Shown piece by piece: positions 5,468 to 54,487 of a stretch of 64,000 bases of DNA. Source of the DNA: Candidatus Cloacimonadales bacterium (GTDB taxonomy: Bacteria > Cloacimonadota > Cloacimonadia > Cloacimonadales > JAIOQZ01). The number at the start of each line of letters is the position of its first letter. Positions within the stretch are counted from its first letter, which is position 1. The stretch spans positions 3,648,001 through 3,712,000 of the forward strand of contig OY771587.1 in the NCBI GenBank assembly GCA_963674825.1, read 5' to 3'. Position numbers and translations under genes: made by a program. Below the pieces are notes generated by a model, which did not search any database, was not told the DNA's origin, and worked only from the letters and a program-made list of their open reading frames with translations.

Positions 5468-5556
5468 AGGGTCCTCCGGTTGAATAAATTGAGGAATATC
5501 AACAAGAGTGTTCCACAACATGATTGTCAAGGTATAACCATGATCAAAATTTTATC

Positions 5557-5584
5557 TTGACATATTTCGCTGAGCGCTTACTCA
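5557..5584 (+). promoter_or_regulatory. Putative sigma70 promoter with overlapping palindrome TGAGcgcttaCTCA (candidate TetR operator)
   Basis: TTGACA at 5557-5562. Imperfect palindrome at 5571-5584 over the -10 region, 30 nt upstream of tetR. Confidence 0.45.
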
Positions 5585-5613
5585 TTGACACGAAACTCAA
5601 CAAAGGCGGATTC

Positions 5614-10691: not shown

Positions 10692-10751
10692 AATTCCTCC
10701 TTTGTTGTTCACATGCCTCAGAGCTGTGTTTACCGTTCGAAAGTGTTAATA

Positions 10752-33823: not shown

Positions 33824-35152
33824 TTATTTTAGAAGCATCATCTTACGAGTGAAAGTCTGATCATCCACGGTAAGCTGGTAGAAATAGATACCGCTGGGCT
33901 GGTCGTTTGCTGACCAAACAGTGGAGTGATTTCCACCGGTACGCTGTTGGTGGTTGATCAGCGTGTTGATGAGCTGACCCTTGAGGTTGTAGATCTTCAG
34001 AGTGACTTCGCCATCGTTCGCGATGTAGAAGTTGATCGTGGTTTCCGGGTTGAACGGATTCGGTGTGTTCTGCTGAAGGCTTGTTACCGGGCTTGCGTCC
34101 GGAACGCTGCTTCCACCTTCCTCACCTTCTTCAACTGTCACTGTCTGCGGACCGTAGAACGTCGATGCTCCACCGAGTTCTTTCGCTTCCAGCCAGTAGT
34201 AGTAGGTCGCGTCCATCTGGGTGTCTTCATCGGTGTATTCGTAGGTCTGCTGAGCAGTCATGTTGTTCGCCTGAACGAATCCAAGGTCAAACGCTTCGTT
34301 GAGGTTTTCGCTTTCGCTGCGAAGAACCTGGTAGCCGAGCATGTCGGATTCAGATTCGGTAACCCAGGAAAGGAGAACATTGTCGTTCGAGGTGAGAACA
34401 GCATCGAAGGTCGAGAGCTCGACCGGCAGCGAATGCTCGACGCCATTCGGTGAGAACTCGTCACACGGCATGTAACCGGGGACATGCGGTTCATAGAACT
34501 GATATGCCCAGGGAGATTCCGGATCTATACCAACCGGATTCTCTGAAGGCCAGCTTGCGAGTACTTCCATATCGTTGGCAAATTCTTCTGTGATCCATAC
34601 ACGGATTGTTACGAAAAACGGATTTCCAATGTAAGACCATGGAATAAATAATTCATCATCTTCATTTCCGGTTGATGTACCGTAAACTCCCAAATCATTA
34701 AACCAGCCATTCCAATCCCAGCCGGTTCCATTCCAATGATTCCATTCTCCCCAATTCGGGCCGCCTGCAAAACAGAACGTATATTCAGGCTGATAGCTGC
34801 CGGTAGCCCATGTTACGGTCTGGTAACCATCCTGCGTTGCACCGGATCCAGGGATCTGGTCTGTGTCGATGGCAACAAAGAGACTCAAATTTTCAGCATT
34901 ATCGCCAAGGAAACGGTTGTCCCCATCTGCCACCGAGCGGTTGATACCGATGTAAAGGTAGGTCTCATCCCAAGTGATATACAGGTCATAATTCGCATTG
35001 TCGAATGTCTCTCGCTCCATGTTCTCGTCCGATTCCCAATCGAATCCGGTATCCTTAAGAATGAGCCCATTGATGGTTGGTGAATTAAGCGTGGTAGCCA
35101 TCATCATGCCGAAGACGGCCAGTAATGAAAACAGAATCAATCCTTTTTTCAT
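33824..35152 (-). CDS. Secreted protein: DOMON/CBM9-like N-domain, LPVELSTF Ig-like domain, FlgD-Ig/T9SS-type C-terminal domain
   Basis: Signal peptide. YITWDETYLYIG...VAIDTD. LPVELSTF...LSWVTESE. NTPNPFNPET...KMMLLK. Confidence 0.8.
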   Translation of the reverse strand: MKKGLILFSLLAVFGMMMATTLNSPTINGLILKDTGFDWESDENMERETFDNANYDLYITWDETYLYIGINRSVADGDNRFLGDNAENLSLFVAIDTDQIPGSGATQDGYQTVTWATGSYQPEYTFCFAGGPNWGEWNHWNGTGWDWNGWFNDLGVYGTSTGNEDDELFIPWSYIGNPFFVTIRVWITEEFANDMEVLASWPSENPVGIDPESPWAYQFYEPHVPGYMPCDEFSPNGVEHSLPVELSTFDAVLTSNDNVLLSWVTESESDMLGYQVLRSESENLNEAFDLGFVQANNMTAQQTYEYTDEDTQMDATYYYWLEAKELGGASTFYGPQTVTVEEGEEGGSSVPDASPVTSLQQNTPNPFNPETTINFYIANDGEVTLKIYNLKGQLINTLINHQQRTGGNHSTVWSANDQPSGIYFYQLTVDDQTFTRKMMLLK

Positions 35153-37890: not shown

Positions 37891-38334
37891 TTAAATCCTC
37901 TCCAGCACCTTCCTTATAGCTACGGGCAATGCCTTCTCAACCCCCGGAGTGAACTGCTCCGAGAATGTGTCGATGTCCTTGACTTCAATGGCGATGATGA
38001 CAAGCTCTTGCGGCAATATCGCGCCGTGCTTCTGCATCAGGTCAAAGGCTTCAAAGAGCCCCATATCGTGCGGTGACGAGTAGTGACTGGCGTTGCGGAA
38101 TTGCTCGGGACTCAGCTCAAACACACTTCCCACCGGCTGCAGGCCCGTGATGATGGAGTCAATGAGGATTACGCGGTCGTAACCGAGCATCTCATCGACT
38201 ACGCGAAATCCAGCCGCGCTGGCTTCCAGCACGTCCAGATCAGGAAGCTGCCTTTTGATCTCACGCGCAACATGCACGCCGATTCCGTCATCGGAAAGAA
38301 TAGGGTTACCGAGTCCAAGTATGAGTGTTTTCAT
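37891..38334 (-). CDS. Hydrogenase maturation protease
   Basis: LGLGNPILSDDGIG, LIDS, SPHD. Directly downstream of the large subunit gene. Confidence 0.92.
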   Translation of the reverse strand: MKTLILGLGNPILSDDGIGVHVAREIKRQLPDLDVLEASAAGFRVVDEMLGYDRVILIDSIITGLQPVGSVFELSPEQFRNASHYSSPHDMGLFEAFDLMQKHGAILPQELVIIAIEVKDIDTFSEQFTPGVEKALPVAIRKVLERI

Positions 38335-38345
38335 TTTCTTTCTTC

Positions 38346-38445
38346 ATGGAACGCGGACGTCCTTGTCCGCATTCTCCACTTTTTAGCATATGCAGCGTTA
38401 CAAGTGTTATAAGACATAGATGCGGACGAGGACGTCCGCGTTCCC
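38346..38445. repeat. Inverted pair of family B repeats (38346-38372 +, 38420-38445 -)
   Basis: ATGGAACGCGGACGTCCTTGTCCGCAT ... ATGCGGACGAGGACGTCCGCGTTCCC. Confidence 0.8.
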
Positions 38446-38452
38446 AGGGGAA

Positions 38453-39913
38453 CTAATCCCTCTTCAACTGCCTTACAATATCTCCAGAAACGTCATGGAC
38501 GTTCACTACCAGCGGCATCTTGCCAGGCAGCGAGTGAGTCGCACAGGCCATGCATGGATCGTATGGACGGAAGGCCATTTCGACCATGTTGAGCAGTTCG
38601 TCGTTGACTACCCCATCGCGGATAAGCTTCTTCGCGGCCTTCGCGATCGACATCGACATCGCTGCGGAGTTGTTCACTGTCGCAACAATCAGGTTCGCTG
38701 CCACGATGATGCCTTTGGGATCCGTCTTGTAGTGATGGATCAACGTTCCGCGCGCAGCCTCCACGATGCCGACACCTTCCGTCGGCGTCTCGGAGGGGAG
38801 ATTGCGGATGTCGGGCGAGGTAATGGCTGGATCGCTCAGGAGTCGCACCATATCCTCGGCAGATTGCATCACTTCCACCAGCCGTGCCCAGTGAAACGCC
38901 AGCGTGAAGTGACTCGGTTTCCCGTCAAGTGTGTCGTACATGCGCTCATATTCTGACTGCGCAAGTGGAGTCGCCATGCCGTCGGAGGCGTTGAGCCTGG
39001 CAAGCGGCGCTACACGATAGACGCTGCTTTCCTTGCCGTCGTTGAATCCCTGCCAGCCGATCTTTTTGAGGAATGGAAACTTCATGTAGCTCCAAGGTTC
39101 CACGTGTTCCGCGATGTGATCGAGGTATTCGTTCGGTGTGAATCGCGCGAATTCCTTTCCTTCCGGATCGACAACCCTCACGTCGCCATCGTAGAAATTT
39201 ACCTTGTTATTCTGGTCGACCAGACCCATATAATAGGTCTCGTGCTTGTAGATATCACCTACAATCAGATCGACATACGCCTTGTTTTTCAGAACGATAT
39301 CCTCAAAGATCTTCAGCGTGAACTTCGTGAATTCCACTGCCTCCTGAGCTATTTTGAGGAATTCCAGGCGCTTCTCTTCGGTCAGAGGTTTCGAGACACC
39401 TCCGGGAAGCCCCCCAACCGGATGAATGATGCGTCCGAACAGATGCTGCACCATGTCGCGCACCCTTCTGCGGATGGAAATAACCTGTCCCCCGATTTCA
39501 ACGCCGACCTTGCCGATCACGCCCAAAATGTTGCGTTCGGCCTTCGGAGCACCCGGCGTCACGACGAAGTCGGGCCCGCCCAGGAAGAAGAAGTGCAGCA
39601 GATGATCCTCGAAAATGTAGGCGTTGTAAACCAGGTTTCGCAGCATTCGAGCTGTGTCGGTCGGCTTGAGGTTATAGACGGCATCGGCAGCCTTTGTGGA
39701 AGCCATGTGGTGCGCCATCGGGCATACGCCGCATATTCTAGGTGTGATGCGCGGCATCTCCTCGACGGGACGCCCCACGCAGAACTGCTCGAAACCTTTC
39801 AACTCCGGGATTTGCAGGTAAGCGTTGCTGACATTTCCGCTATCGTCGAGAAAAATCTCTATCTTGCCGTGTCCTTCAAGCCTTGTGATGGGGTCGATGG
39901 TAACGGTTTTCAT
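38453..39913 (-). CDS. mvhA: [NiFe] hydrogenase large subunit, group 3c (MvhA-type)
   Basis: TRLEGHG, L1 RICGVC, EAARG, L2 DPCMACATH plus a cleavable C-terminal extension. Confidence 0.92.
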   Translation of the reverse strand: MKTVTIDPITRLEGHGKIEIFLDDSGNVSNAYLQIPELKGFEQFCVGRPVEEMPRITPRICGVCPMAHHMASTKAADAVYNLKPTDTARMLRNLVYNAYIFEDHLLHFFFLGGPDFVVTPGAPKAERNILGVIGKVGVEIGGQVISIRRRVRDMVQHLFGRIIHPVGGLPGGVSKPLTEEKRLEFLKIAQEAVEFTKFTLKIFEDIVLKNKAYVDLIVGDIYKHETYYMGLVDQNNKVNFYDGDVRVVDPEGKEFARFTPNEYLDHIAEHVEPWSYMKFPFLKKIGWQGFNDGKESSVYRVAPLARLNASDGMATPLAQSEYERMYDTLDGKPSHFTLAFHWARLVEVMQSAEDMVRLLSDPAITSPDIRNLPSETPTEGVGIVEAARGTLIHHYKTDPKGIIVAANLIVATVNNSAAMSMSIAKAAKKLIRDGVVNDELLNMVEMAFRPYDPCMACATHSLPGKMPLVVNVHDVSGDIVRQLKRD

Positions 39914-39916
39914 AAT

Positions 39917-40930
39917 CTATTGCTCCTTGTTGCGTTGCGGCATGGTTCTTCGGCCCAGTAGCGACTTTGCCAGGGAGAATCGATAGAATAGTCCTGCCGG
40001 ATCGACGATGCTATCCATAAGCCTTTTCGTCATCGCCTCCGGAATCTCCTCTTCCCCATCCAGCCCAGCGATAGAGCCAATGGCAGAGATCATTTTCGCG
40101 CCTACATCGATCACGCCGTCGATCGGTCCATAGCAGCCGCGACAGGGCATGTTCGCCTTGATGCAGCGTCCTTCTCCGTCATCACCGCAACCGGAACGCG
40201 TCACGGGGCCCATGCAGATTACGCCTTGGGTCAGGAAGCATTTCTCTGGATCGAGCATCACCTCGGAAACACGTTTAAACTCCTTGATGGAGAGCTTTTC
40301 CGGCTTGGTGTCGTTTCGCGGACAGGTATCGCAAAGCGCTTTACTTGGCCCGAGGACGGAACCCTTGGCCGGTAGCTCGCCGCGCAGGATAGTCATAATT
40401 GCGTTCAACGTCAGGTGTGGTGCGGGAGAGCATCCGGGGAGGTAGTAGTCCACCTCGATCACCTGATCGGTCGCCTTGACATCGTCGTGGAATCCGGGCA
40501 GTGTCAGCTTGCCTTCGGGGACTTCGCATTCCTTCAGAGGAATGGTGTTCTGTGGGTTGTCAATGGATGGGCATTTATCGAGATAGGAACTGCGGAAGAT
40601 GGTTTCCCGATCCCAGAAATTGCCCAGTCCCGGAATGCCACCGATCTGCGAACAGGCACCGAACGAGACGATCAGTTGCGCCTTCTGACGTAAGAGCTTC
40701 GCCATGTGCTCCTGCTCATCCGTGCGGATCGCTCCGTTGATGAAGCAGACCGCCATTTCGCCGTCCTTCATGTTCTCCACATCAGAGTATTTGAAGTCCA
40801 TGGCGCAGGGCCAGAAGACAATATCGACCTTCTCCACCACGTCCAGAATCTTCTCGTGCAGGTCAACGATCGCTTCCTCGCAACCACCGCAGGAAGCGCA
40901 CCAGTAAAAACCGATTTTCGGTTTATTCAT
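39917..40930 (-). CDS. mvhG: [NiFe] hydrogenase small subunit (MvhG-type)
   Basis: CASCGGCE, GAC, PGCSP, CDTC, CFL...CMGPVTRSGC...PCRGCYGP. ATG 40930 after GGAGG. Confidence 0.9.
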   Translation of the reverse strand: MNKPKIGFYWCASCGGCEEAIVDLHEKILDVVEKVDIVFWPCAMDFKYSDVENMKDGEMAVCFINGAIRTDEQEHMAKLLRQKAQLIVSFGACSQIGGIPGLGNFWDRETIFRSSYLDKCPSIDNPQNTIPLKECEVPEGKLTLPGFHDDVKATDQVIEVDYYLPGCSPAPHLTLNAIMTILRGELPAKGSVLGPSKALCDTCPRNDTKPEKLSIKEFKRVSEVMLDPEKCFLTQGVICMGPVTRSGCGDDGEGRCIKANMPCRGCYGPIDGVIDVGAKMISAIGSIAGLDGEEEIPEAMTKRLMDSIVDPAGLFYRFSLAKSLLGRRTMPQRNKEQ

Positions 40931-40960
40931 CCAATCCTCCATGGTTCACATTGAAGTTGG

Positions 40961-41383
40961 CTATTCCAGCTCGATTCCAACCTTGGGAAGCGGACCGAGC
41001 CGACGTATTCTTTCTGTAAAATCATTCATCGCGGTTTGGAACTTCTTGCCCTCACTCGCAGAGATCCACTCCAGGTGAAAGCGCTCGGGATCGATACCGA
41101 ACTGCTCCAGCGTTCGCTTGAGCAACATGCTCTTGCGCAAGGTTTTGTAGTTGCCGGACTGATAGTGGCAATCGCCCGGATGGCAGCCGCCGATGAACAC
41201 GCCGTCACAGCCTTCCTTGAATGCCATGAGGATGTGCTGCGGATCCACGCGTGACGAGCATAGCGTCTTGATCGCGATCCCGTTGGGTGGATACTTTAAC
41301 CGGGATGTACCGGCAAGATCAGCACCGGCGTAGGTACACCACTGGCAGAGAAAACAGACGATTTTCGGTTCAAATTTTTCCAT
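40961..41383 (-). CDS. mvhD: Hydrogenase [2Fe-2S] subunit (MvhD-type)
   Basis: FEPKIVCFLCQWCTYAGAD, CSSRVD, GCHPGDCHY, WISASEG. ATG 41383. Confidence 0.93.
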   Translation of the reverse strand: MEKFEPKIVCFLCQWCTYAGADLAGTSRLKYPPNGIAIKTLCSSRVDPQHILMAFKEGCDGVFIGGCHPGDCHYQSGNYKTLRKSMLLKRTLEQFGIDPERFHLEWISASEGKKFQTAMNDFTERIRRLGPLPKVGIELE

Positions 41384-41417
41384 ATTGCACCCTTTTACGC
41401 TGTTCTTCCGTTTGCGC

Positions 41418-41517
41418 GTCATCCTGAGCGGAGTTGAAGGAGACAGGCAAACATTCAATATTATAGAGACTTGTTTGTCGAACTTCTTGTGATCCTTCGA
41501 CTCCACTCAGGATGACA
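41418..41517. repeat. Inverted pair of family C repeats (41418-41441 +, 41493-41517 -)
   Basis: GTCATCCTGAGCGGAGTTGAAGGA ... TCCTTCGACTCCACTCAGGATGACA between hdrA and mvhD. Confidence 0.8.
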
Positions 41518-41533
41518 CAAGAAGCCGCAAATT

Positions 41534-43504
41534 CTATATCTCCGAGACCAGGCTATGGCTCGCGATTACTCGAATCATATTCTCGATCTGCATATCGGTG
41601 AGGTTCTTCTGTTGCGCGGCCCCGGAGGGGCATCCGCTGATGCAGGCTCCACAACCTTCGCACAGAATTTCGTTCACCACCACGATCCCCAAACGCGGAT
41701 CCTTCTCCCGTGCACCATACGGACAGAGACCAACGCAGATTCCGCAGCCGGAGCAATGGTCAGCATCGACCATAGCCACGATCGGGGAATGTTGAATCTC
41801 GTCGTGCGAGAGAAGCGCCAGCACCTTGGCTGCGGTACCGGAAGCCTGCGACACCGAATCCGGGATATCTTTTGGACCCTGGCAAGAACCTGCCAGGAAG
41901 AACCCCGCCTGAAGGCTTTCCACCGGCCTGAGCTTGGGATGCGCTTCGGTAAAGAATCCCGCGCTGTCCGAGCTGATTTTGAGCTCGTGTATCAGCTTGT
42001 CCGTGCCGTAGCTTGGAACCACGCCCATCGCCAGCACCACTAGGTCAGCGTCCACTTCTATGCGCTTGCTTGAAAGAGTGTCGATGCCGAATACGCGCAG
42101 TTGATCGCCGTGTGGATAGATACGCGCCACCTTACCGCGCACATAGACCACCTCCTCTTCGGAGACGGCTTGCTGCACAAATTCCTCGTAGCGCTTTCCT
42201 CCCGCTCTGATATCGATGTAGAACACGTACGGCTGACCGTCGTGAACCTTGTGCTTGTAGAGCTTGGCGTGCTTGAGCGTGTACATACAGCAGAACTTCG
42301 AGCAGTACGGCAGATGCCGCTCTGGATCGCGTGAACCGGAACATTGAATGAAAACAATCTCCTTAGGAACCTTGCCGTCGGACGGCCTTCGTACCTCACC
42401 GGCAGTCGGACCCGTAGCAGAAAGAATACGCTCGAATTGCAGACTGGTGATCACGTCCGGATACTTACCGTAGCCATACTCGGCAATGTTCTCGATCGGA
42501 TAGAGATCGTAACCCGTTGCCAGCACCACCGCACCGACCTTTTCTTTATAGATCGTCGGCTTGGCATCGTAGCTGATGGCCTTGGCATCGCACTTGTCGC
42601 GGCATTTTCCGCACGCAATGGGCTCGAGCCCGAGGCAATTCGCCTCATCCAGGGTGAATGTGGCCGGAATCGCCTGCGGAAACGGCATATAGATCGCCTT
42701 ACGCCATGCGAGACCCTCTTCGTGTTCAGCCGGTACCAGCACCGGACAGGCCGATGCGCAGTCACCGCACATATTACAGATATCGGGGTTCACATAGAGC
42801 GCTTTCTGCTTTACTTTTACCTCGAAGTTGCCGATGAAGCCCTCAATCGAATCCACCTCGCTGTTGACGTAGAGTTTTATATTCTTGTTCTTGCCCAGTG
42901 CCACCATTTTGGGAGATAGAATGCACTGAGAGCAGTCGAGCGTCGGGAAGGTCTCCGAAAGCTGGATCATGTGACCACCGATGGAGGGCTTTTTCTCCAC
43001 CAGAATCACCTCATAGCCGCCTTCCGCGATATCGAGCGCAGTCTGGATACCCGCGATACCACCTCCGATCACCATCGCGCGCTTGGTCAGCGATGCGGTG
43101 GAAGGAATCAGCGATTCGTTGAGCTTTAGCTTCTCGATAGCGGTCTTGATGACCAGATTCGCCTTACGCGTGGCCATCACACGGTCGGTGTGAACCCAAC
43201 TGCATTGCTCGCGGATGTTGGCGATCTCGAGTTGGTATTTGTTCAGGCCCGATTCTTCCAGAACGTTCTGGAAGGTTGATTCGTGCAGCACGGGTGAGCA
43301 TGCCGCCACGACGATCCCCTCCAGGAATTTATCCTGAATTGCTTGCTTGATGCGGTTCTGACCGGGATCGGAGCAGAGGAACATATAGTTTTCCACATGC
43401 TCCACGCCGGGATAGTTGGCAATCTGACGGGTGAGCTTCTCCACATCCACGATCTCACCGATATTTACACCGCAGTGACAGATAAATACGCCGATCTTTT
43501 TCAT
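41534..43504 (-). CDS. hdrA: Heterodisulfide reductase subunit A
   Basis: GVFICHCG, ACSP..HE, NIREQCSWVH, GGGIAG FAD motif, ETFPTLDC, YCSKFCCM, four ferredoxin-type Cys motifs. Confidence 0.95.
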   Translation of the reverse strand: MKKIGVFICHCGVNIGEIVDVEKLTRQIANYPGVEHVENYMFLCSDPGQNRIKQAIQDKFLEGIVVAACSPVLHESTFQNVLEESGLNKYQLEIANIREQCSWVHTDRVMATRKANLVIKTAIEKLKLNESLIPSTASLTKRAMVIGGGIAGIQTALDIAEGGYEVILVEKKPSIGGHMIQLSETFPTLDCSQCILSPKMVALGKNKNIKLYVNSEVDSIEGFIGNFEVKVKQKALYVNPDICNMCGDCASACPVLVPAEHEEGLAWRKAIYMPFPQAIPATFTLDEANCLGLEPIACGKCRDKCDAKAISYDAKPTIYKEKVGAVVLATGYDLYPIENIAEYGYGKYPDVITSLQFERILSATGPTAGEVRRPSDGKVPKEIVFIQCSGSRDPERHLPYCSKFCCMYTLKHAKLYKHKVHDGQPYVFYIDIRAGGKRYEEFVQQAVSEEEVVYVRGKVARIYPHGDQLRVFGIDTLSSKRIEVDADLVVLAMGVVPSYGTDKLIHELKISSDSAGFFTEAHPKLRPVESLQAGFFLAGSCQGPKDIPDSVSQASGTAAKVLALLSHDEIQHSPIVAMVDADHCSGCGICVGLCPYGAREKDPRLGIVVVNEILCEGCGACISGCPSGAAQQKNLTDMQIENMIRVIASHSLVSEI

Positions 43505-44394
43505 GATCTCACCTCCGGAAGCAATCCCTTCTCGCGTAGAAGCGGTCTCGGATCGATTTCATGCAGTTTGACCCACTCTTCGTCCCAGCCTCCGCCCAAC
43601 GCGATGGACATCAGCTCGGTGAAGTAAAACACCGGCATCGTCCTGAACGTGCTGAAAGTCTCCTGCGCAAGCTTCTGACGCTGGTCGAGATTGAACGCGC
43701 ACAATGGACAACTGGTGATGATCGTCTCACAGCCGGTTTCCCAGGCGGAGTTGATCAGCTCGAACGTGCGCTTGGCCGTGACATCCTTTCGGGTGATGGT
43801 CTGATACGCTCCGCAGCATTCCAGCCGATACGGGAATGCGCGACTTTCGGCTCCGAGCGCTTCCAGGAGGTCCTCCATGATGCTGGGATCCTCAAAATCA
43901 TCAATCGCGTATTTCTCGGGACGAACCAGCAGGCAGCCGTAATATGCCCCCACTTTCATCCCTTTCAGCGCGGTGGTCACTTTCTCTTTGACCTTCTCGA
44001 AGGTGATTCGATCGCGCAAGATAGACAGCAGATGCGTGATCTGCACTTTGCCCGTATATTCGATCGGTTCTTTGTACATAAACTGGTTGACCTTGCGCAG
44101 GTTCTCTTTATCTGCATCGATAAAGTCCTTTGCTCGCCGGATGGTATTATAGCACATGCTGCACATCACGGCGAGTTCGTCAATGCCCTGCGATTCGGCC
44201 CTGAGCAGGTTTCGTATGGAAGCGATCTGGAGCATGAGGTCGTCCGTTGTTTGTGAATAGACGGTGCCACAGCAAACCCAGTCCTTCATTTCGGTCATGG
44301 GCATGCCAAGCTTGTCCATCGCACGGATAGCGGATTGCTCGAAGTGGCTCGCGTGGTTTTTCAGTGTACAGCCGGGATAGTATGCAAGATTCAT
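43501..44394 (-). CDS. hdrB: Heterodisulfide reductase subunit B
   Basis: Two CCG domains: YYPGC...CCG...CSMC and YYGC...CCG...CPLC. Confidence 0.93.
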   Translation of the reverse strand: MNLAYYPGCTLKNHASHFEQSAIRAMDKLGMPMTEMKDWVCCGTVYSQTTDDLMLQIASIRNLLRAESQGIDELAVMCSMCYNTIRRAKDFIDADKENLRKVNQFMYKEPIEYTGKVQITHLLSILRDRITFEKVKEKVTTALKGMKVGAYYGCLLVRPEKYAIDDFEDPSIMEDLLEALGAESRAFPYRLECCGAYQTITRKDVTAKRTFELINSAWETGCETIITSCPLCAFNLDQRQKLAQETFSTFRTMPVFYFTELMSIALGGGWDEEWVKLHEIDPRPLLREKGLLPEVRS

Positions 44395-44409
44395 AACGTA
44401 CCTCTCCTT

Positions 44410-44817
44410 TTACCCGGATAGTTTGCGGAACACACTCACCAGAACAATCGGCGGTACGTCCTTGAGGTCTTCATCGCTGACGGATGTCGGCTCGATAACG
44501 CCGATCCGCTGGCGCAGATTGATGGTTCGGGCAGCTTCCATAACGCGTGAAACGTCGATTCCCTTGGGGCATCTGCTGGAGCATTGCAGGCAGGTGGAGC
44601 AGATCCAGATCGTCTCGGACTTCAAAATCTCGTCGATAGCGCCGAGTTGCGCCAGGCGCAAGACCTGGTTTGGTTTGATGTCCATGTATTCCACCACCGC
44701 GCATCCGGACGAGCAGTTGCCGCACTGGTAGCAATCGAACACGTTCTGCCCGCTGAGTTCCTGCAATTTCTGCAAGAGCGGATTACGCATCTTCTGGCGG
44801 GATATTACATATCGCAT
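44410..44817 (-). CDS. hdrC: Heterodisulfide reductase subunit C
   Basis: CYQCGNCSSGC and WICSTCLQCSSRCP. Confidence 0.92.
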   Translation of the reverse strand: MRYVISRQKMRNPLLQKLQELSGQNVFDCYQCGNCSSGCAVVEYMDIKPNQVLRLAQLGAIDEILKSETIWICSTCLQCSSRCPKGIDVSRVMEAARTINLRQRIGVIEPTSVSDEDLKDVPPIVLVSVFRKLSG

Positions 44818-44818
44818 G

Positions 44819-45355
44819 CTATTCCCCCTTATACTGATAGCCCGTATCGAGGGCCTTCATGTTCAATTCCAGAAATTTTTTCGGTACCGATTTCGCCACC
44901 GCCTTCTGCATTGCTTTAAAGGTACAGACATTCGCCTGTGCGACGGCGAAACCGAGCATCACGATGTTGGCGACGATCTTCTTGCCGAGTTCTTCCGCGA
45001 TTCGAGTCGCCGGAATGGCCTTGGCGTTGACGCGCGAATGATCCTGTATGTCCTTCACCAGATCCGTGTCATAGAGCAGGATACCGCCATCCTTGAGGTG
45101 CGGATAGAAGGTGTTGTAGCCTTCCTGCGATAGTGCCAGAAGCACATCGGAAGTATCAACGAGCGGGTAATCGACTTCGATATCCGAGATGACCACCTGT
45201 GAACTGCATGCACCGCCACGAGCCTCTGGCCCGTACGCCTGGGTCATGGAGGCATTCTTTCTATCATGGATCGACGCCGCTTCGCCCAATATATAGGAAG
45301 AGAGGATAATTCCCTGACCGCCGAAACCGCTGATTTTCACACGTAAGTCTTTCAC
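44819..45355 (-). CDS. korC: 2-oxoacid:ferredoxin oxidoreductase gamma subunit
   Basis: GFGGQG, YGPEARGG, ANIVMLG. Substrate not determinable from sequence. Confidence 0.88.
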   Translation of the reverse strand: MKDLRVKISGFGGQGIILSSYILGEAASIHDRKNASMTQAYGPEARGGACSSQVVISDIEVDYPLVDTSDVLLALSQEGYNTFYPHLKDGGILLYDTDLVKDIQDHSRVNAKAIPATRIAEELGKKIVANIVMLGFAVAQANVCTFKAMQKAVAKSVPKKFLELNMKALDTGYQYKGE

Positions 45356-46221
45356 AAGTTCCTCCAGTACTCGTTTTCGCGGTCGAGTTCCTCTTTGATA
45401 CCGATCTGAACATTTTCCCAGAAGGTCGGCTTATCGATATTCACGAAGTTACCACAAACGATTTCGCCGCTCATATCAAGCGGGATATTTGTCGGGTCGG
45501 CATTGTGGTCGATCACCGAACGTTCTTTGAATTCCTTCAGCAGGTCGAGCCCGGTACCGCCTTTGTTCTTGCGCGCGAAGACGGTCGGACATGGCGAAAC
45601 AACCTCGATGAAGCAGAATCCTCGCTTCTTCGCGGCGGTTGCAATCGAATCAGAGAGCCTGCGAACATGCAGCGCGGTCCACCTGGCAACATAAGAGGCA
45701 CCCGCGGCCGCGGCCAGGCCGCAAAGATTGAACGGATGCTCGTAGTTACCGTAGGGAGCGGTGGAGCTGTGCGCCATCAGTGGCGTGGTGGGCGCTGTCT
45801 GGCCCCCCGTCATGCCGTAGATGAAGTTGTTCACACAGATAACGTTGATATCCACGTTCCGGCGCGCTGCGTGGATCAGATGGTTGCCGCCGATCGCGAA
45901 AAGATCGCCATCGCCTGAGAAAACAAACACGTTGAGATCGCGGTTGGCGAGTTTCAAGCCTGTCGCGAAGGGAATCGCCCTTCCGTGTGTGGTATGGTAG
46001 GAATCGAGGTTGATATAGCCAGCGACGCGGCCCGTGCATCCGATGCCGGACACCACTGCGACCTTGTCGAAATCCACCTCCGCTTTCTTCAGTCCATCCA
46101 CGAATGCTGTGACATCCGAACCCAATCCGCAGGATGAACACCAGATGTGCGGCATGCGGTCCATACGGAGAAGCTTCTCCATGGGGTGTTGGCGTTCTGG
46201 TAATTTCTGTATATCACTCAT
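45352..46221 (-). CDS. korB: 2-oxoacid:ferredoxin oxidoreductase beta subunit (TPP-binding)
   Basis: WCSSCG, SGIGC, HGRA, GDGD...NNFIYGMTGGQ, SPCP. Confidence 0.9.
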   Translation of the reverse strand: MSDIQKLPERQHPMEKLLRMDRMPHIWCSSCGLGSDVTAFVDGLKKAEVDFDKVAVVSGIGCTGRVAGYINLDSYHTTHGRAIPFATGLKLANRDLNVFVFSGDGDLFAIGGNHLIHAARRNVDINVICVNNFIYGMTGGQTAPTTPLMAHSSTAPYGNYEHPFNLCGLAAAAGASYVARWTALHVRRLSDSIATAAKKRGFCFIEVVSPCPTVFARKNKGGTGLDLLKEFKERSVIDHNADPTNIPLDMSGEIVCGNFVNIDKPTFWENVQIGIKEELDRENEYWRNL

Positions 46222-47368
46222 AAGCCACCTCTTCTATGGCTTTGCAAACCACGTTGAAATCGTGAATTCCTCCGCCGGGATGCGGCACGGATTTGACAGA
46301 TGCCCACTTGATCGCGCAGCGTTCCACCTCAAGCACCATCTGGCCCATGTTCAGTTCCGGTACAACGAAGCCCTTCACCTTCTGCGCCAGTTCGCGGATT
46401 CTCTTTTCCGGGAACGGCCAGGCGGTGATCAGCCGCAGGAGCCCGACCTTGATGCCCTTTTTCTTCGCCTTTTCGATGGCCGGCACCACGGTTCGCGCCG
46501 TGATTCCGTATGCGACCACGATCACGTCGGCCCCATCGGTGTCGCGCTCTTCCAGTAGGATGATGTCGTCCGCTTGATCTTTGATCTTGTTGATCAGACG
46601 CGGAACCAGTTCGAGCTGACACTCCTCGGTCATCACTGGGTAGCCTCGTTCGTCATGTGTGAGGCCGGTAGTATGGTAGCGATAGCCGTCACCGGCCTTC
46701 GCGAAATCCGGTACCATGTTCTCACCCACCTCATAAGGATTGTATTCGCCGGGCTTCTTCGTCGTGTAGCGCCGGTTAAAGATATCGATCTCATCGACGT
46801 TCGGGACGATCACCTTTTCAGTCATATGACCCACGATGGCATCGGAGAGGACGAATACCGGCAAGCGGTACTTCTCGGCGTAGTTGAACGCGACAATGGT
46901 GAGGTCGAACATCTCCTGGGGCGATTTGGGGCAAAGCGCGATGGTCATGTAATCGCCGTGCGATCCCCAGCGTGCCTGCATCATGTCCGATTGCCCCCAC
47001 AGCGTCGGAAGTCCGGTACTCGGACCACCACGCTGGACGTTGACAATAACGCATGGCGCTTCCATCATCATGCCCAAGCCGATGTTCTCCAGTTTCAGAG
47101 AGATTCCCGGACCGGAGGTTGCCGTCATCGATTTGACACCGGCCCATGAAGCACCCAGGATGCTCGCCATGGAGGCGATTTCATCCTCGAATTGGACGAA
47201 CACGCCGTCCAGAAGCGGGAGCCGGTAGGCCATACGTTCAGCAATCTCGGAAGCAGGGGTGATAGGATACCCACCGAAGAACCTGCAACCTGCCGTTACA
47301 GCGCCTTCTGCGCAGGCGATATCGCCCTGCATAAAGAATTCACCGTGTAACTTGCTTTTTTTAAACAC
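46214..47368 (-). CDS. korA: 2-oxoacid:ferredoxin oxidoreductase alpha subunit
   Basis: GYPITPASE, EDEIAS, TSGPG, QRGGPSTGLPT, ELNMGQ. Confidence 0.9.
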   Translation of the reverse strand: MFKKSKLHGEFFMQGDIACAEGAVTAGCRFFGGYPITPASEIAERMAYRLPLLDGVFVQFEDEIASMASILGASWAGVKSMTATSGPGISLKLENIGLGMMMEAPCVIVNVQRGGPSTGLPTLWGQSDMMQARWGSHGDYMTIALCPKSPQEMFDLTIVAFNYAEKYRLPVFVLSDAIVGHMTEKVIVPNVDEIDIFNRRYTTKKPGEYNPYEVGENMVPDFAKAGDGYRYHTTGLTHDERGYPVMTEECQLELVPRLINKIKDQADDIILLEERDTDGADVIVVAYGITARTVVPAIEKAKKKGIKVGLLRLITAWPFPEKRIRELAQKVKGFVVPELNMGQMVLEVERCAIKWASVKSVPHPGGGIHDFNVVCKAIEEVAYE

Positions 47369-47642
47369 TTCTGCCCTCCCTCTCGCAATCCGCCTGCACG
47401 ATGAATATCGCGAAATCTGGGCAGATCATTTCGCACAGGCCACAATAAGTGCATTGTTCGGAATGTGCAGTTATGGGAGGATGATAACCTTTTTGATTGA
47501 ACGCTGTCGAAAATTCCAGAACCTTGCGAGGACAGAATTCAATACAGTAACCGCAACCCTTGCATCGCTCCGACAGGATAACGACCTCGCCGGCGACAAT
47601 TTGAGGCTTTGGTTGTCCAAAAGGAGTTTCCCAGTACTTCAT
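47361..47642 (-). CDS. korD: 2-oxoacid:ferredoxin oxidoreductase delta subunit (2[4Fe-4S])
   Basis: CKGCGYCIEFCP and CTYCGLCEMICPDFAI. Confidence 0.88.
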   Translation of the reverse strand: MKYWETPFGQPKPQIVAGEVVILSERCKGCGYCIEFCPRKVLEFSTAFNQKGYHPPITAHSEQCTYCGLCEMICPDFAIFIVQADCEREGRSV

Positions 47643-48006
47643 GAAATTCTCCTGAATGATAAGTACGTGTTTTTCGATGGTAACCGTGCTTGTGAATTGG
47701 ATTGATAACCTGTTGAACGTACATGTCTGACAAAAGACAACCTTTATTTCTATTTAGTGTTTTTAATGTCAATTCACTGTAACGTACTGGGAGCAGGATC
47801 ATAAAGGATGATCCCCAAAGTTCTTAAGGCTGAGAGTTGATGAATCTGAAGAAAGTTGTCAAATTTTTTCTGCTTGCTTAATTCTGATTCGGATTCAGTT
47901 ATAGCCTTATCTTACGTCACTCACGAAAGATACGGCGTTCATGAAAATATGAAATATGTTCAGGAGCGTAGCATGCAATTGTCTTAACTTGCCGGAATTT
48001 ACTCGT

Positions 48007-49884: not shown

Positions 49885-49989
49885 CGTTCGTCCTTCGACT
49901 CCGCTCAGGATGACACGATTATTTTGCAACACGCTGGCAGATTGACAGTTATCAACCGTGTCATCCTGAGCGGAGTCGAAGGACGAACG
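49885..49989. repeat. Perfect 33 bp inverted pair of family C repeats
   Basis: CGTTCGTCCTTCGACTCCGCTCAGGATGACACG (49885-49917) and its exact reverse complement (49957-49989). Confidence 0.9.
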
Positions 49990-50099: not shown

Positions 50100-51815
50100 A
50101 TGAAAAGGATTTATGCTCTACTTATTATAAGCCTGTTGGTTACGGCGTTGGCGGCTCAGACCGCCATCGGCGACACACTCACCGTAATCTTGAAACCGCT
50201 CCTGAACATCCCGGAGATCGTTACGCCGGGCGAGCGATTCACCCTCGAATGCGACGCACCCACCAACGCCGACAACTGGCATGTCGAGCTTGTGCATGGG
50301 CAGACCGTTATCGAACTGGGGATCTATTCCGCTAACTTCTACAACAGCCTCGAGCGCTGGCAGATTCAATGCAACATCCCGGAAAACCCACCGCTTTTCG
50401 AGCTCTACGACCTGCATGTCACCGCGGATGGCATCGAAGAAGACACCGAGAAACACGCCGTGCAGATCATCCCCGAAGAACGCGAGAACTACGCTATTAT
50501 CCACATCACCGACCCGCACATGCCTACCTCGCTCTACTATTACCAGGATGGAGCGGAAACCGATTCGACCAATATCGTCGATATGCGACAGGTGATTCAG
50601 GATATCAACATCATCAATCCGGCGTTCGTACTTCTGACCGGCGATGTGGTTCACGAAGGTGAGCTGGAAGACTATTTGAACAAGCGGTATTACACACGCG
50701 CCAAACGCGTGCTCGGAGAGCTGGAAGTGCCGGTCTACGTCACGAGCGGAAACCATGATATCGGCGGCTGGGACAGCACACCTCCCGAGGACGGAACCGC
50801 GCGGAAGAACTGGTGGAAGTTCTTTGGTTGGAACCGCCTTTACGATCCGCCCTCCGGCGATCCCTACTACACGCAGAACTACAGCTTCGATTACGGCGAT
50901 GTGCATTTCATTGGACTGGAAGCCTATAATAATTATGACAATTGGCGTTGGCAAATCTACGGCTCAGACAGCTTCACCGACGGCCAGATGGAATGGCTGG
51001 AGAACGATCTCGCCGATGCGCAGGACGCCGCCAGCCGTGTTATGTTCTATCACTTCGATTTCACAGAGCAGCTCGACCTGAACGCCCTCGATGTAGATCT
51101 GGCGTTGTGGGGACACATCCACTACAACGAAGGCAGCATCCACTATCAGCCCTACGACCTTGGTACCGACAACCTCGGAGACAATACTCGCGCCTATCGC
51201 CCGATACTTGTGAACAACAACGTCGTCGATCCGCAGGAAACTGTTTATGCCGGCTACAGCGGACAGAATCTTCGGGTCAACTACTCGCCATCCAACGAAG
51301 GCGTCGAAGATTCGGTCGAAGCCGATGTTCACAACGGGCTCGGAATATCGTTTACCGGTTGCAGACTCAAGTTTGTCATGCCATCCACCAATTATGGATA
51401 TATCGTGGAAGACGGTGAGCTCGAGCAGGTGGACCGTTCCGGTGAATTCAATATCTGCTATGTCAGCTTTGACTTGCCAGAAAACGAGGACGTAACTGTC
51501 AGTATCGCCACCGATTACGATATCGCAGTGGATCCTGTCACCGATAGCCCAACGATTGATGGTATCTCAACCATCGCGCCGAACCCGTTCAATCCTGTAA
51601 CCCGCATCTATTACACGCTTTCCAGTGATACAGACGTTAAACTACATATATATAATGTTCGAGGTGCTCGCGTAGCCACATTGGATCAGTACCACCAGAA
51701 AGCCGGTAGTCATTCCGTTCTGTGGGATGCTGATGGACAACCCTCCGGTATTTATTTGATCGAGATGATTACGCAGAATAATCGATCTATCCAGAAAGCG
51801 ATCTTGCTGAAATAG
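50100..51815 (+). CDS. Secreted calcineurin-like metallophosphoesterase with FlgD-Ig/T9SS-type C-terminal domain
   Basis: Signal peptide. TDPH, TGD, GNHD, GHIH motifs. APNPFNPVT...YNVRG...SGIY...KAILLK. Confidence 0.88.
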   Translation: MKRIYALLIISLLVTALAAQTAIGDTLTVILKPLLNIPEIVTPGERFTLECDAPTNADNWHVELVHGQTVIELGIYSANFYNSLERWQIQCNIPENPPLFELYDLHVTADGIEEDTEKHAVQIIPEERENYAIIHITDPHMPTSLYYYQDGAETDSTNIVDMRQVIQDINIINPAFVLLTGDVVHEGELEDYLNKRYYTRAKRVLGELEVPVYVTSGNHDIGGWDSTPPEDGTARKNWWKFFGWNRLYDPPSGDPYYTQNYSFDYGDVHFIGLEAYNNYDNWRWQIYGSDSFTDGQMEWLENDLADAQDAASRVMFYHFDFTEQLDLNALDVDLALWGHIHYNEGSIHYQPYDLGTDNLGDNTRAYRPILVNNNVVDPQETVYAGYSGQNLRVNYSPSNEGVEDSVEADVHNGLGISFTGCRLKFVMPSTNYGYIVEDGELEQVDRSGEFNICYVSFDLPENEDVTVSIATDYDIAVDPVTDSPTIDGISTIAPNPFNPVTRIYYTLSSDTDVKLHIYNVRGARVATLDQYHQKAGSHSVLWDADGQPSGIYLIEMITQNNRSIQKAILLK

Positions 51816-52265: not shown

Positions 52266-52390
52266 ATCTCGCCACGCATCAGCTTATTATCGATAATCGT
52301 CGAGGTATTTCTCAAGTTTTGCCGTAAATATTACGATATTAGCTTGACGCTTTATCCATATTCTTGAAATTGTCGAGCAGGAGGTACGCC

Positions 52391-54487
52391 ATGTCGAAAT
52401 TTGAAAAGATATTTGGGGAACTGACCTTCAGCAAATCTGTGATGAAACGGAAGCTGAGCAAAGATACATATGAAAAGATCATCGCTACAATGGAGAGCGG
52501 TGAGCCATTGGACGAGGAAATCGCGGCCGATATTGCCCACGCGATGAAAGAATGGGCGTTGGATGCCGGCGCAACACACTTCACCCACTGGTTTCAGCCA
52601 CAACGCGGTGGAACCGCCGAGAAACACGATGCCTTCATCTGCTACGACGATGACGGTGAGATCATCGAAAGATTTTCGCCGGACAGACTGATCCGCTCCG
52701 AACCGGATGCATCATCTTTCCCTTCCGGAGGAATGCGCTCGACCTTCGAAGCGCGAGGCTACACAGCCTGGGATCCCACATCACCGGCGTTTCTGCTCGA
52801 ATCGGGTGACGCGAGAACGCTGGTCATCCCGTCGGTTTTCCTGGCCTGGACAGGTGAGGTGCTAGACATCAAAACGCCGATGCTGCGCTCGCAACGAGCC
52901 CTGAACGATGCTGTCATCAGGTTACAGAAGTTACTCGGGAATCGATTTGCCAAACGCACAAGAGTCTTGCTCGGGCCTGAACAGGAGTATTTCCTTGTAC
53001 CAAAAGAGCTCTACAGCCAGCGTCCCGACCTCCAGCTCTGCAAACGCACCCTTTTCGGAGCTCCTTCCCCCAAGGGTCAGCAGATGGAAGATCACTATTT
53101 CGGTAGCATCAAGCCGCGCATCATGGCGTTCATGGCTGATCTCGATAACGAACTCTATCGCCGGGGAATCCCCAGCAAAACGCGCCACAATGAGGTTTCG
53201 CCCAACCAGTTCGAGATGGCTCCGCTCTACGAAGACGCAAATCTCGCGGTGGATCACAACCTCCAGGTCATGGCGCTACTGGACACTATCGCCGGACGGC
53301 ACGGGTTGGTGGCAATCCTTCACGAAAAACCATTTGCCGGCCTGAACGGTAGCGGCAAGCACCTCAACTGGTCGATCTGCGACAACACAGGCGCAAACTA
53401 CCTTGAGCCATCGAAATCACCGCTCAAAAACATCAGCTTTCTGATCACAGTCGCAGCAATCCTTCTGGGCGTACATCGCTTCGGCGGCCTGCTACGCGCA
53501 TCGGTATCGGACGCCGGTAATGATCACCGTCTTGGTGGAGGCGAAGCGCCTCCAGGCATCATGTCAGTGTACCTCGGCCAGTACCTCAACGAATTACTGG
53601 ATGAGATCGAAGGGATCGGCAAGCTTTCGGTGAAGACGATGGAAGATATCAACCTCGGCGTACAGAAACTTCCACGGATCGCCAAAGACATCGCTGATCG
53701 CAACCGCACCTCCCCTATCGCGTTTACGGGCAACAAATTCGAGTTCCGCCCCGTGGGCTCAAACCAGAATTGCGCTGAATCGGCCACCATCATGAATCTG
53801 ATCATCGCATGGGGTTACGACCAGATATATAAGAAGTTGAAGGCACGCAAAGGCAACGTGAAAGAAAGCGCGTTCCTGGTGATTAAAGAAGTCCTGAAGG
53901 AAACCCATGCTGTGCGATTTGAAGGAAATAACTATTCAGACGAATGGCGACAGGAAGCTCAAAAGCGCGGACTGCCCATCGCGGATAACACACCTCAAGC
54001 ATTGCGTTTCTATCTCGACGAGGATGTGAAGAAGCTCTTCAGCGAATATCATGTGCTTTCTGAGCGCGAACTGATCTCGAAGGTAGATATAAAACTCGAA
54101 GCCTACATCAAGACACTGGAGATCGAGTTTCGTACCGCCATCGAACTGGTCAACACCCGCGTGATGCCGTCTCTGACGCGTCACCTTAAGTTGCTGACCG
54201 AGACATACGCCGGACTGCTCAAAGCAGAGATCACCTCCGATGCCATGCGAGAAGAGATTCGTATTCTGGAGAAGATCTTCAGCGACCTTGCCCAGCATAT
54301 CAAAACAATGAAAGACATCCTTGCAAAAGGCGAAACAATCGAAGACCTTTTCGAACGGGCAGATTTCTACGCCGCAGAAGGACTTTCATCGCTTGATCGG
54401 ATGCGTACTGATGTAGATATGGTGGAGTCGTATGTTGCGGATGACCTTTGGGCGTTGCCTCGCTACTACCAACTCCTAAAACAGTAG
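52391..54487 (+). CDS. Glutamine synthetase type III
   Basis: GATHFTHWFQP...AEKHD, EPDASSFPSGGMRSTFEARGYTAWD, HNEVSPNQFE, NGSGKH, DRNRTSP, NKFEFR. RBS AGGAGG. Confidence 0.95.
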   Translation: MSKFEKIFGELTFSKSVMKRKLSKDTYEKIIATMESGEPLDEEIAADIAHAMKEWALDAGATHFTHWFQPQRGGTAEKHDAFICYDDDGEIIERFSPDRLIRSEPDASSFPSGGMRSTFEARGYTAWDPTSPAFLLESGDARTLVIPSVFLAWTGEVLDIKTPMLRSQRALNDAVIRLQKLLGNRFAKRTRVLLGPEQEYFLVPKELYSQRPDLQLCKRTLFGAPSPKGQQMEDHYFGSIKPRIMAFMADLDNELYRRGIPSKTRHNEVSPNQFEMAPLYEDANLAVDHNLQVMALLDTIAGRHGLVAILHEKPFAGLNGSGKHLNWSICDNTGANYLEPSKSPLKNISFLITVAAILLGVHRFGGLLRASVSDAGNDHRLGGGEAPPGIMSVYLGQYLNELLDEIEGIGKLSVKTMEDINLGVQKLPRIAKDIADRNRTSPIAFTGNKFEFRPVGSNQNCAESATIMNLIIAWGYDQIYKKLKARKGNVKESAFLVIKEVLKETHAVRFEGNNYSDEWRQEAQKRGLPIADNTPQALRFYLDEDVKKLFSEYHVLSERELISKVDIKLEAYIKTLEIEFRTAIELVNTRVMPSLTRHLKLLTETYAGLLKAEITSDAMREEIRILEKIFSDLAQHIKTMKDILAKGETIEDLFERADFYAAEGLSSLDRMRTDVDMVESYVADDLWALPRYYQLLKQ

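Follow-up and report, generated by a model that had tools for sequence, protein, structure and literature searches.

Introduction

Gene clusters which combine a 2-oxoacid:ferredoxin oxidoreductase (OFOR, Kor) with a heterodisulfide reductase-like complex (HdrABC) are known from Cloacimonadota and from gammaproteobacterial symbionts. The present article deals with such a cluster, korDABC-hdrCBA-mvhDGA-protease, in which Hdr is followed by an Mvh-type [NiFe] hydrogenase and a hydrogenase maturation endopeptidase. It is located in a stretch of 64,000 nt from a Candidatus Cloacimonadales bacterium (assembly GCA_963674825.1, contig OY771587.1, positions 3,648,001 to 3,712,000 of the forward strand), which is called the window throughout. 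The closest described system stems from the same phylum. In Ca. Celaenobacter, genes for thiol:fumarate reductase (TFR, Tfr), 2-oxoglutarate:ferredoxin oxidoreductase (OGOR), fumarate hydratase, succinyl-CoA synthetase, Mvh (group 3c) and Hdr form one cluster, which was interpreted as a H2-driven reverse tricarboxylic acid (TCA) cycle (Williams et al., 2021; PMC8542988). In tubeworm symbionts and in Thioflavicoccus mobilis korABCD and tfrAB are interspersed with flxABCD-hdrABC, and a bifurcating complex was proposed which shuttles electrons directly to both Kor and Tfr (Rubin-Blum et al., 2019; PMC6315080). The kor-tfr-flx-hdr cluster is co-expressed in Endoriftia, intergenic regions included (Mitchell et al., 2024; PMC11636981). 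A survey of 2026 restates the Hdr-fumarate reductase-Kor model (PMC13147460), a 2025 paper describes MvhADG-HdrABC as a trait of 'Clade B' Cloacimonadota (PMC12590816), and in marine Cloacimonadota a 2025 preprint notes an OGOR-containing cluster with [NiFe] hydrogenase and Hdr genes on its downstream side (10.1101/2025.11.11.687785). All of these reports are cited from excerpts of their texts. Judged by titles and abstract openings, a biochemical test of an Hdr-linked fumarate reductase is not evident among the papers listed by a literature search. A first-pass annotation of this DNA had singled out the linkage of OFOR, Hdr and Mvh as its notable part; this linkage was already in print, with Mvh (PMC8542988; preprint 10.1101/2025.11.11.687785) and with Flx (PMC6315080, PMC11636981).

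The cluster in the window is a further example of this published kind. As in Celaenobacter, kor, hdr and mvh modules are united in one cluster (excerpt of PMC8542988), and the full Celaenobacter-like arrangement was seen in four loci of the present survey (L020, L034, L022, L005). Unlike in Celaenobacter, the genus of the window has sucCD, fumAB and the putative fumarate reductase, i.e., a pair of genes for an FrdB-like iron-sulfur (FeS) protein and a TfrA-like flavoprotein, outside of the cluster; that the pair has moved out is particular to this genus. With the tubeworm symbionts the cluster shares a four-subunit OFOR, an OGOR there, and HdrABC in one cluster, and a soluble fumarate reductase is interleaved there as well. 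The differences concern the electron input, which is FlxABCD (NADH) there and the MvhDGA hydrogenase here, the hosts, which are Gammaproteobacteria with a complete reverse TCA cycle, and the position of kor, between hdrA and hdrBC there and upstream of hdrC here (excerpts of PMC6315080 and PMC11636981).

Three methanogen systems are related at the level of the proteins. Compared with MvhADG-HdrABC (5odc, 8rvu) all six subunits are full-length homologues with the same cofactor motifs; different are the bacterial host, the scores, which are under the equivalog cut-offs, and the acceptor, which is probably not the heterodisulfide of coenzymes M and B (CoM-S-S-CoB). With respect to TfrAB of Methanothermobacter (NF004900, NF004898) the flavoprotein has TfrA as its best match, and the FeS protein, HdrC and HdrB together span TfrB. 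Unlike in TfrAB, scores are under cut-off, and the FeS subunit carries no fused CCG part, which is supplied, if at all, by HdrB. Finally, in the Fdh/Mvh-Hdr-Fmd supercomplex of Methanospirillum hungatei (7bkb) Hdr delivers low-potential electrons directly to a CO2-fixing enzyme via polyferredoxin-like subunits, which sets a precedent. Chains of 7bkb rank among the best matches of both HdrB and the FeS protein to solved structures. The CO2-fixing partner there is formylmethanofuran dehydrogenase; here the candidate partner is an OFOR.

From the comparisons below we propose, with a probability of about 55%, that an H2-oxidizing, bifurcating Mvh-Hdr complex would provide low-potential electrons to Kor for the conversion of succinyl-CoA to 2-oxoglutarate, and high-potential electrons most likely to fumarate.

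Conservation of the kor-hdr linkage

A HdrB homologue is present in 64 of 232 Cloacimonadota genomes, i.e., in 26 of 66 genera, and in none of the 98 genomes of the largest family. For a synteny survey the DNA around the HdrB genes of the phylum was collected and the window proteins were mapped onto these loci. A gene order restricted to a single genome had been named beforehand as an outcome which would speak against a coupling of kor and hdr. The order is conserved: korC is directly upstream of hdrC in 30 of 32 distinct loci with an HdrB of at least 60% identity, and the remaining two loci end at contig edges. Twenty-three of the 30 are of the window type, with a KorA of 74-97% identity and mvhDGA following. 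The other seven possess a different OFOR, and HdrA-like and FrhB-like genes take the place of mvhGA. In a third architecture, hdrA::mvhD-hdrC-hdrB, in which HdrB is 38-48% identical, kor genes precede the hdr genes in six loci. They represent a further paralogue in five of these and the window type in L042 (KorA 82% identical). Judged by gene order, the OFOR-Hdr link is real and better conserved than the link between Hdr and hydrogenase.

In a tree of 58 KorA sequences, a quick tree with sequences drawn from HdrB loci, the type of the second OFOR of this genome (kor2, see below; 11 rows) and the window type (44 rows) form separate, well-supported groups with Shimodaira-Hasegawa-like approximate likelihood ratio (SH-aLRT) values of 100 and 99.

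A scan of metagenome contigs with a HdrB profile yielded 601 matched stretches, 586 of which encode a relative. The best 80 were kept; 44 loci have a length of at least 8 kb. Among these 44 the FeS/flavoprotein pair occurs in 23, kor in 16 and mvhGA in 8; fumarase or succinyl-CoA synthetase genes are found in 13, pair plus kor in 9, and neither pair nor kor in 14. The gene orders vary widely, e.g., hdrCB-korDABC-hdrA-mvhD-FeS-flavoprotein, mvhGA-hdrCBA-mvhD-protease-FeS-flavoprotein-malic enzyme, and hdrCB-FeS-flavoprotein.

Some loci stand apart. In five metagenome contigs (L122, L124, L130, L138, L143; HdrB 38-43% identical) kor is missing and the order is hdrB-hdrC-hdrA-mvhD-FeS-flavoprotein, to which fumA or fumAB is added in some; two contigs of the same group, L125 and L140, are labelled human gut. 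In a locus from Cloacimonadota (L057, 1657-15306) hdrCB-hdrA are accompanied by NuoE/NuoF-like genes (2Fe-2S_thioredx, Complex1_51K) and a DsrE-like protein; kor and frd are absent from this Hdr cluster, which is of a different, NADH type.

The putative fumarate reductase

The genes for the FeS protein and the flavoprotein are inserted between mvhD and mvhG in 17 of the 20 window-type loci which extend past mvhD. In the remaining three, all from the genus of the window, the pair is missing. Further, sucCD and fumAB adjoin many window-type clusters of the relatives. In the window kor and hdr are contiguous, separated by 1 nt, and the pair is neither inside nor next to the cluster; family scans of the 64-kb window did not detect it among the encoded proteins. 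The genome does encode the pair elsewhere (70% identical to the copies of L020), with a malic enzyme gene next to it, and sucCD-fumAB at a third site, apart from both the hdr cluster and the pair. The first-pass annotation had assumed a thiol or disulfide as partner of Hdr and had not found one in the vicinity. The assumption probably does not stand: with the pair inside most clusters of the relatives the partner is most likely no thiol. The second part does: no acceptor is visible at this locus because in this genus the fumarate reductase pair has moved out of the cluster.

The FeS protein has 228 aa; its cysteines include a plant-type [2Fe-2S] pattern as well as two complete CxxCxxCxxxCP motifs, and a CCG domain is absent. 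The flavoprotein (555 aa, FAD_binding_2) has TfrA as its best NCBIfam match, at 324 bits under the cut-off of 718 bits. It retains the residues of a fumarate site, i.e., the catalytic Arg together with HPTG, H-Y..GG and NRL. Where Sdh/Frd read SHT, with the His which covalently binds FAD, six of seven orthologues examined have SNS or ANS, i.e., an Asn; the seventh was not scored as the exact AQGG anchor is absent. Non-covalent FAD is typical of enzymes which reduce fumarate and oxidize succinate poorly. The Asn thus favors fumarate reduction by this predicted flavoprotein.

When TfrB of a methanogen (488 aa) is used as a yardstick, the FeS protein covers residues 18-86, in a weak alignment, HdrC covers 125-223 and HdrB 263-468. 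HdrB is the sole CCG protein of the genome; PF02754 has no other match there. The fumarate reductase would therefore have no thiol-oxidizing module of its own, and a diffusible thiol loop between it and Hdr would be pointless. A canonical fused TfrB or HdrD was considered and rejected, again because a second CCG protein is absent from the genome.

Of the 232 genomes of the phylum, 57 encode the flavoprotein. When the tables for the two proteins were compared by hand, HdrB and flavoprotein coincided in 53 genomes; 11 have HdrB alone, 4 have the flavoprotein alone and 164 lack both. Of the 53, 36 have the two genes at most about 11 kb apart on one contig; in 14 they are on separate contigs, most of them short, and in three they are far apart on the same contig. 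These three are the genome of the window and two others of its genus.

A profile of the FeS protein retrieved 158 cluster representatives at an E-value of 1e-30 or better and 417 at 1e-10 from 1.84 billion searched; by this profile it is a distinct family of modest size. One member of the matched set, P0053 (727 aa), matches the profile with its first 215 residues and may be a fusion of FeS protein and flavoprotein.

In two loci (L038, 15255-16685; L042, 2312-3742) an FAD-linked oxidase, similar to D-lactate/glycolate dehydrogenases, and extra MvhD and FeS genes are situated beside the Hdr-Frd cluster. Their gene content suggests exchangeable electron-input modules at these two clusters.

Identity of the subunits

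The first-pass annotation had described all cofactor motifs as intact, with Cys instead of selenocysteine (Sec), and the motif check agrees. KorD and HdrC each possess two CxxCxxCxxxC motifs, HdrB two CCG motifs plus a CxxC, HdrA an FAD-binding GGGIAG and three CxxCxxCxxxC motifs. KorB has its GDG motif at residue 103, MvhG contains 17 Cys, and MvhA has RICGVC and DPCMAC, hence the Cys form. All eight motif Cys of HdrC are invariant in 46 relatives. In HdrB C9, C41, C42, C78, C81, C154, C193, C194, C229 and C232 are invariant in 48 relatives.

All four subunits of an OFOR, delta, alpha, beta and gamma, are encoded. KorA scores 557.6 bits with NF006412 ('2-oxoacid:acceptor oxidoreductase subunit alpha'), above the curated cut-off of 411; KorC with NF006323 reaches 191.6 bits, under the cut-off of 235. 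The closest solved structures of KorA are 1yd7_A (4.2e-110) and the 2-oxoglutarate synthase 8ys5_A (2.4e-84). We infer 2-oxoglutarate as the substrate of Kor from context, i.e., from sucCD and fumAB beside the orthologues.

The six subunits of MvhADG-HdrABC are encoded together with their cofactor motifs, and the equivalog cut-offs are not reached. HdrA aligns over its whole length (residues 3-644) with the solved methanogen HdrA 8rvu_a (E 1e-196), HdrB over its whole length with HdrB 7bkb_B as nearest solved relative (1.4e-39), and MvhA over its whole length with MvhA 5odc_F (3.9e-120), the NAD-reducing hydrogenase 5xf9_D being behind at 4e-95. Against NCBIfam the scores, with the cut-off given second, were 786 vs 1100 bits for HdrA (NF040770, HdrA2), 169 vs 345 for HdrB and 68 vs 160 for HdrC (TIGR03290, E 9.8e-19). 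With the Vhu models they were 410 vs 800 for MvhA, 202 vs 450 for MvhG (VhuG, E 9.1e-60) and 118 vs 215 for MvhD (VhuD, E 2e-34). The endopeptidase scores 112.4 bits with TIGR00072, above the cut-off of 47.45.

The genomic context

The host genome is one contig of 3.89 Mb, closed and rated 99.57% complete; the public loci nearest to the window stem from metagenome-assembled genomes of Candidatus Cloacimonadota and Cloacimonadales. The genes hypF, C, D, E, A and B are clustered together (genome position about 588-594 kb); therefore, the hydrogenase can be matured. The absence of hyp genes, which the first-pass annotation had considered as a sign of a non-functional hydrogenase, does not apply. 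MvhA is the only PF00374 match of the genome; there are, in addition, four [FeFe]-hydrogenase matches and two group-4-type loci. The lack of dsrC near the cluster, noted earlier, extends to the entire genome, and DsrC as a partner of Hdr was rejected for this reason. One TusA and one GcvH homologue exist, both far from the cluster.

Fumarase and succinyl-CoA synthetase genes are present in the genome. The marker domain of ATP-citrate lyase is absent from it and from the genomes of its family (absent in 8 of 8), although the same search detected it in 18 of the 232 Cloacimonadota genomes. No match to the citrate synthase family (PF00285) turned up in the genome, whereas the control was positive in 13 of 14 reference genomes; the Re-type was not searched for. 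Because both are absent, a reductive route to 2-oxoglutarate would be useful. On the same grounds a full reverse TCA cycle, the reading given for Celaenobacter in the excerpted report (PMC8542988), is unlikely in this organism and was rejected for this genome, the limit for the Re-type applying here too.

The second four-subunit OFOR, kor2 (C1:2368535-2375865, locus L074), is followed by methylmalonyl-CoA epimerase and by subunits of a Na+-translocating methylmalonyl-CoA decarboxylase. By its gene neighbors kor2 is likely part of a catabolic route from 2-oxoglutarate to propionate, separate from the Hdr-linked Kor.

A proposed mechanism and its alternatives

In the proposed mechanism MvhAG would oxidize H2 and MvhD would carry the electrons to the flavin of HdrA, where the electron pair would be split. 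The high-potential electron would pass through HdrC and HdrB to the FrdB-like protein, from there to the flavoprotein and to fumarate, with no thiol disulfide involved. The low-potential electron would reach ferredoxin, or KorD directly, and serve the carboxylation of succinyl-CoA to 2-oxoglutarate. The role here would be an anabolic reductive branch, i.e., malate, fumarate, succinate, succinyl-CoA, 2-oxoglutarate (glutamate), and neither a full reverse TCA cycle nor autotrophy, because neither ATP-citrate lyase nor a citrate synthase family member was found. The single complex, fumarate as its acceptor, 2-oxoglutarate as the product of Kor and the direction of electron flow are what we infer from the genes. 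A H2-driven bifurcation which feeds a reductive carboxylation had been one of two options in the first-pass annotation; it fits the evidence, as do the gene content and the tight coupling of kor and hdr described there, and neither the conserved synteny nor the complete hyp set speaks against it.

The standard potentials are -414 mV for H2, about +30 mV for fumarate/succinate and about -500 mV for ferredoxin. By our own estimate from such textbook values the overall reaction of H2, fumarate and ferredoxin would be strongly exergonic. Tfr, Hdr-Mvh and Kor work together in methanogens, and the proposed branch mirrors that pathway.

What Hdr complexes reduce in organisms which lack coenzymes M and B is an old question, and the gene association suggests fumarate. 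One exergonic step of the TCA cycle would then pay for the hardest CO2-fixing step, as heterodisulfide reduction does in methanogens. The idea of fumarate has been published before, and what is added here is comparative genomics. The window contributes a closed, 99.6% complete genome in which the fumarate reductase pair is split from the kor-hdr-mvh core, a natural case for studying their joint function.

Several observations weigh against this proposal. The OGOR-specific NCBIfam models remain under their cut-offs, for KorA NF007206 with 397 vs 579 bits, for KorB NF007207 with 247 vs 364 and for KorD, whose best match is OGOR_delta (NF042987), with 78.9 vs 125. No Cys of either CCG motif has been lost from HdrB, and disulfide chemistry may therefore persist. 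The FeS/flavoprotein pair is outside the operon in this genome, at least 1.5 Mb from the cluster, and no shared motif was found among the regions upstream of korD, frdB and sucC. The Hdr-linked KorA clade is biased by sampling as its loci were chosen through HdrB. Likewise, the counts for co-occurrence of HdrB and flavoprotein are inflated as the genomes are kin. Of the 11 genomes with HdrB in which no flavoprotein was detected, the majority are incomplete; two reach 93% and 99% completeness. Lastly, OFORs and group 3c hydrogenases are reversible, so the direction cannot be read from the sequence, and the organism looks proteolytic.

The last point leads to the alternative which survives best, although we regard it as unlikely: the same complex would run in reverse, Kor would oxidize 2-oxoglutarate to succinyl-CoA, and the reduced ferredoxin together with a donor of higher potential, succinate or a thiol, would be confurcated by Hdr-Mvh to H2 in amino-acid fermentation or syntrophy. 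Besides the reversibility of the enzymes, the many secreted peptidases with sorting domains of the type IX secretion system (T9SS) in the window and the genome agree with it, and the malic enzyme beside the flavoprotein gene is compatible with either direction. The 2025 preprint, in its excerpted part, takes the cluster of marine Cloacimonadota as part of propionate oxidation (10.1101/2025.11.11.687785). Other features argue for the opposite direction. The four [FeFe]-hydrogenase matches and two group-4-type loci could evolve H2 instead, and kor2 with the genes of the methylmalonyl-CoA pathway would serve catabolism. The His to which FAD would be bound covalently, normally a requirement for succinate oxidation, is missing from the flavoprotein. 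In addition, we estimate from textbook potentials that H2 formation from succinate and ferredoxin would at most approach equilibrium, even if H2 were kept at about 1 Pa.

Still less probable, in our opinion, is that in this genus Hdr reduces a real disulfide, of a protein or of a small-molecule thiol, while H2 bifurcation produces ferredoxin for Kor. The conserved CCG cysteines would be explained, as would the unlinked frd genes, here and in the two relatives of the genus which have both genes on one contig; the single TusA and the single GcvH are at hand, and some genomes have HdrB and no detected flavoprotein. Against this stand the missing DsrC, the lack of a thiol-handling gene in the window, the distance of TusA and GcvH from the cluster and the lack of a second CCG protein which could regenerate a disulfide. 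The location of frd inside the related clusters and the coverage of methanogen TfrB by FeS protein, HdrC and HdrB likewise speak against a disulfide.

It is quite improbable that the operon simply houses two independent enzymes, Kor and Hdr-Mvh, which meet at most via the general ferredoxin pool and whose adjacency has no particular meaning for the mechanism. Free ferredoxin normally serves as partner to either type of enzyme, and the scans for promoters and terminators were no better than shuffles, yet kor and hdr are adjacent across three hdr architectures and many metagenome orders, including one with kor between hdrB and hdrA, the KorA of the window is in a clade distinct from the other OFORs of the genome, and kor and Hdr-Flx are co-expressed in Endoriftia according to the excerpted report (PMC11636981).

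Going beyond the proposed H2-driven bifurcation, one may speculate that HdrBC of this lineage functions without any thiol substrate as a built-in wire of a soluble fumarate reductase, and that a Mvh-Hdr-Frd-Kor supercomplex reduces fumarate with H2 and passes the low-potential electron straight into KorD without free ferredoxin. We consider this extension doubtful. If true, the lineage would possess a bacterial equivalent, with an anabolic role, of the Hdr-Fmd supercomplex of methanogens, and this would answer what Hdr reduces outside of methanogens.

Layout of the locus

The cluster occupies positions 37891-47642 of the window on the minus strand (Table 1). The first-pass annotation had read eleven consecutive genes in this order on one strand; all eleven open reading frames (ORFs) are at these positions with the Pfam and NCBIfam families to be expected. 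The junction lengths it had given match those measured: korD/korA and korA/korB overlap by 8 nt each and korB/korC by 4 nt, the korC stop precedes the hdrC ATG by 1 nt, hdrC and hdrB are 15 nt apart, and hdrB/hdrA overlap by 4 nt. Further downstream the gaps are 18 nt (mvhD-mvhG), 3 nt (mvhG-mvhA) and 118 nt ahead of the protease gene. The endopeptidase gene comes after mvhA in relatives as well.

Table 1. Features of the kor-hdr-mvh cluster, given as positions in the window.
Feature	Position	Strand	Remark
Upstream region of korD, candidate promoter/regulatory region	47643..48006	-	364 nt, from ABC permease gene to korD
korD, OFOR delta subunit, 2 x [4Fe-4S]	47361..47642	-	Fer4 families
korA, OFOR alpha subunit	46214..47368	-	POR_N, PFOR_II
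korB, OFOR beta subunit, thiamine pyrophosphate (TPP)-binding	45352..46221	-	TPP_enzyme_C
korC, OFOR gamma subunit	44819..45355	-	POR family
hdrC, Hdr iron-sulfur subunit	44410..44817	-	Fer4_8, Fer4_17
hdrB, CCG-domain subunit	43501..44394	-	two CCG stretches (Pfam)
hdrA, flavoprotein (bifurcation site in methanogen Hdr)	41534..43504	-	full-length match to methanogen HdrA
hdrA-mvhD spacer with REP-like dispersed repeat	41384..41533	-	spacer only if mvhD starts at M42
mvhD, [2Fe-2S] adaptor between hydrogenase and HdrA	40961..41506, true start probably near 41383	-	FlpD domain
mvhG, [NiFe] hydrogenase small subunit	39917..40942	-	Oxidored_q6
mvhA, [NiFe] hydrogenase large subunit, Cys form	38453..39913	-	NiFeSe_Hases
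Hydrogenase maturation endopeptidase	37891..38334	-	HycI

The longest ORF of mvhD starts at a GTG, has 181 aa and runs through a repeat element. This reading is probably too long because the FlpD domain spans residues 49-171 (E 1.7e-51) and MvhD of relatives has 138-154 aa. M42 is the likelier start and would give a protein of about 140 aa; consequently, a spacer of about 150 nt would separate hdrA and mvhD. This spacer contains one of 20 genomic copies of a repeat similar to repetitive extragenic palindromes (REP), CCTGAGnGnAGnCGAAGGA with flanking inverted repeats. Two further copies of CCTGAGnGnAGnCGAAGGA are near 49909 and 49965, between the ABC transporter genes and the next gene. Length and sequence of the spacer differ among members of the genus.

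Upstream of korD, blocks are preserved in all four members of the genus, namely AGAAAAAATTTGACAA, GGTTGTCTTTTGTCA...ACGTTCAACAG and a CAGGAG ribosome-binding site. The 364-nt region is likely the promoter of the cluster. The conserved block occurs only once in the genome. In a consensus scan promoter-like and terminator-like sites were no more frequent than in shuffled sequence, and the 9-mers common to the upstream regions of korD, the FeS gene, sucC, kor2D, hypF and fumB were only generic A-rich or TTGACA strings.

The genes on either side are unrelated to the cluster: upstream are parts of an ATP-binding cassette (ABC) transporter, downstream a GFO/IDH/MocA oxidoreductase gene and asnS. At a distance of 4.7 kb from korD the opposite strand encodes a type III glutamine synthetase (52364-54487, plus strand); this could be a context of 2-oxoglutarate/glutamate assimilation, or a coincidence. 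T9SS sorting domains (Por_Secre_tail) end the window proteins at 67-1653, 9525-10712, 33824-35152, 50100-51815, 54659-58519 and 60367-62136, C25 and M14 peptidases among them, and such predicted tails on peptidases fit a proteolytic lifestyle. At 5524-9260 (plus strand) a gene for a TetR-family regulator is followed by one for a protein of 1024 aa in which the PF13941 'MutL' domain is confined to residues 78-552.

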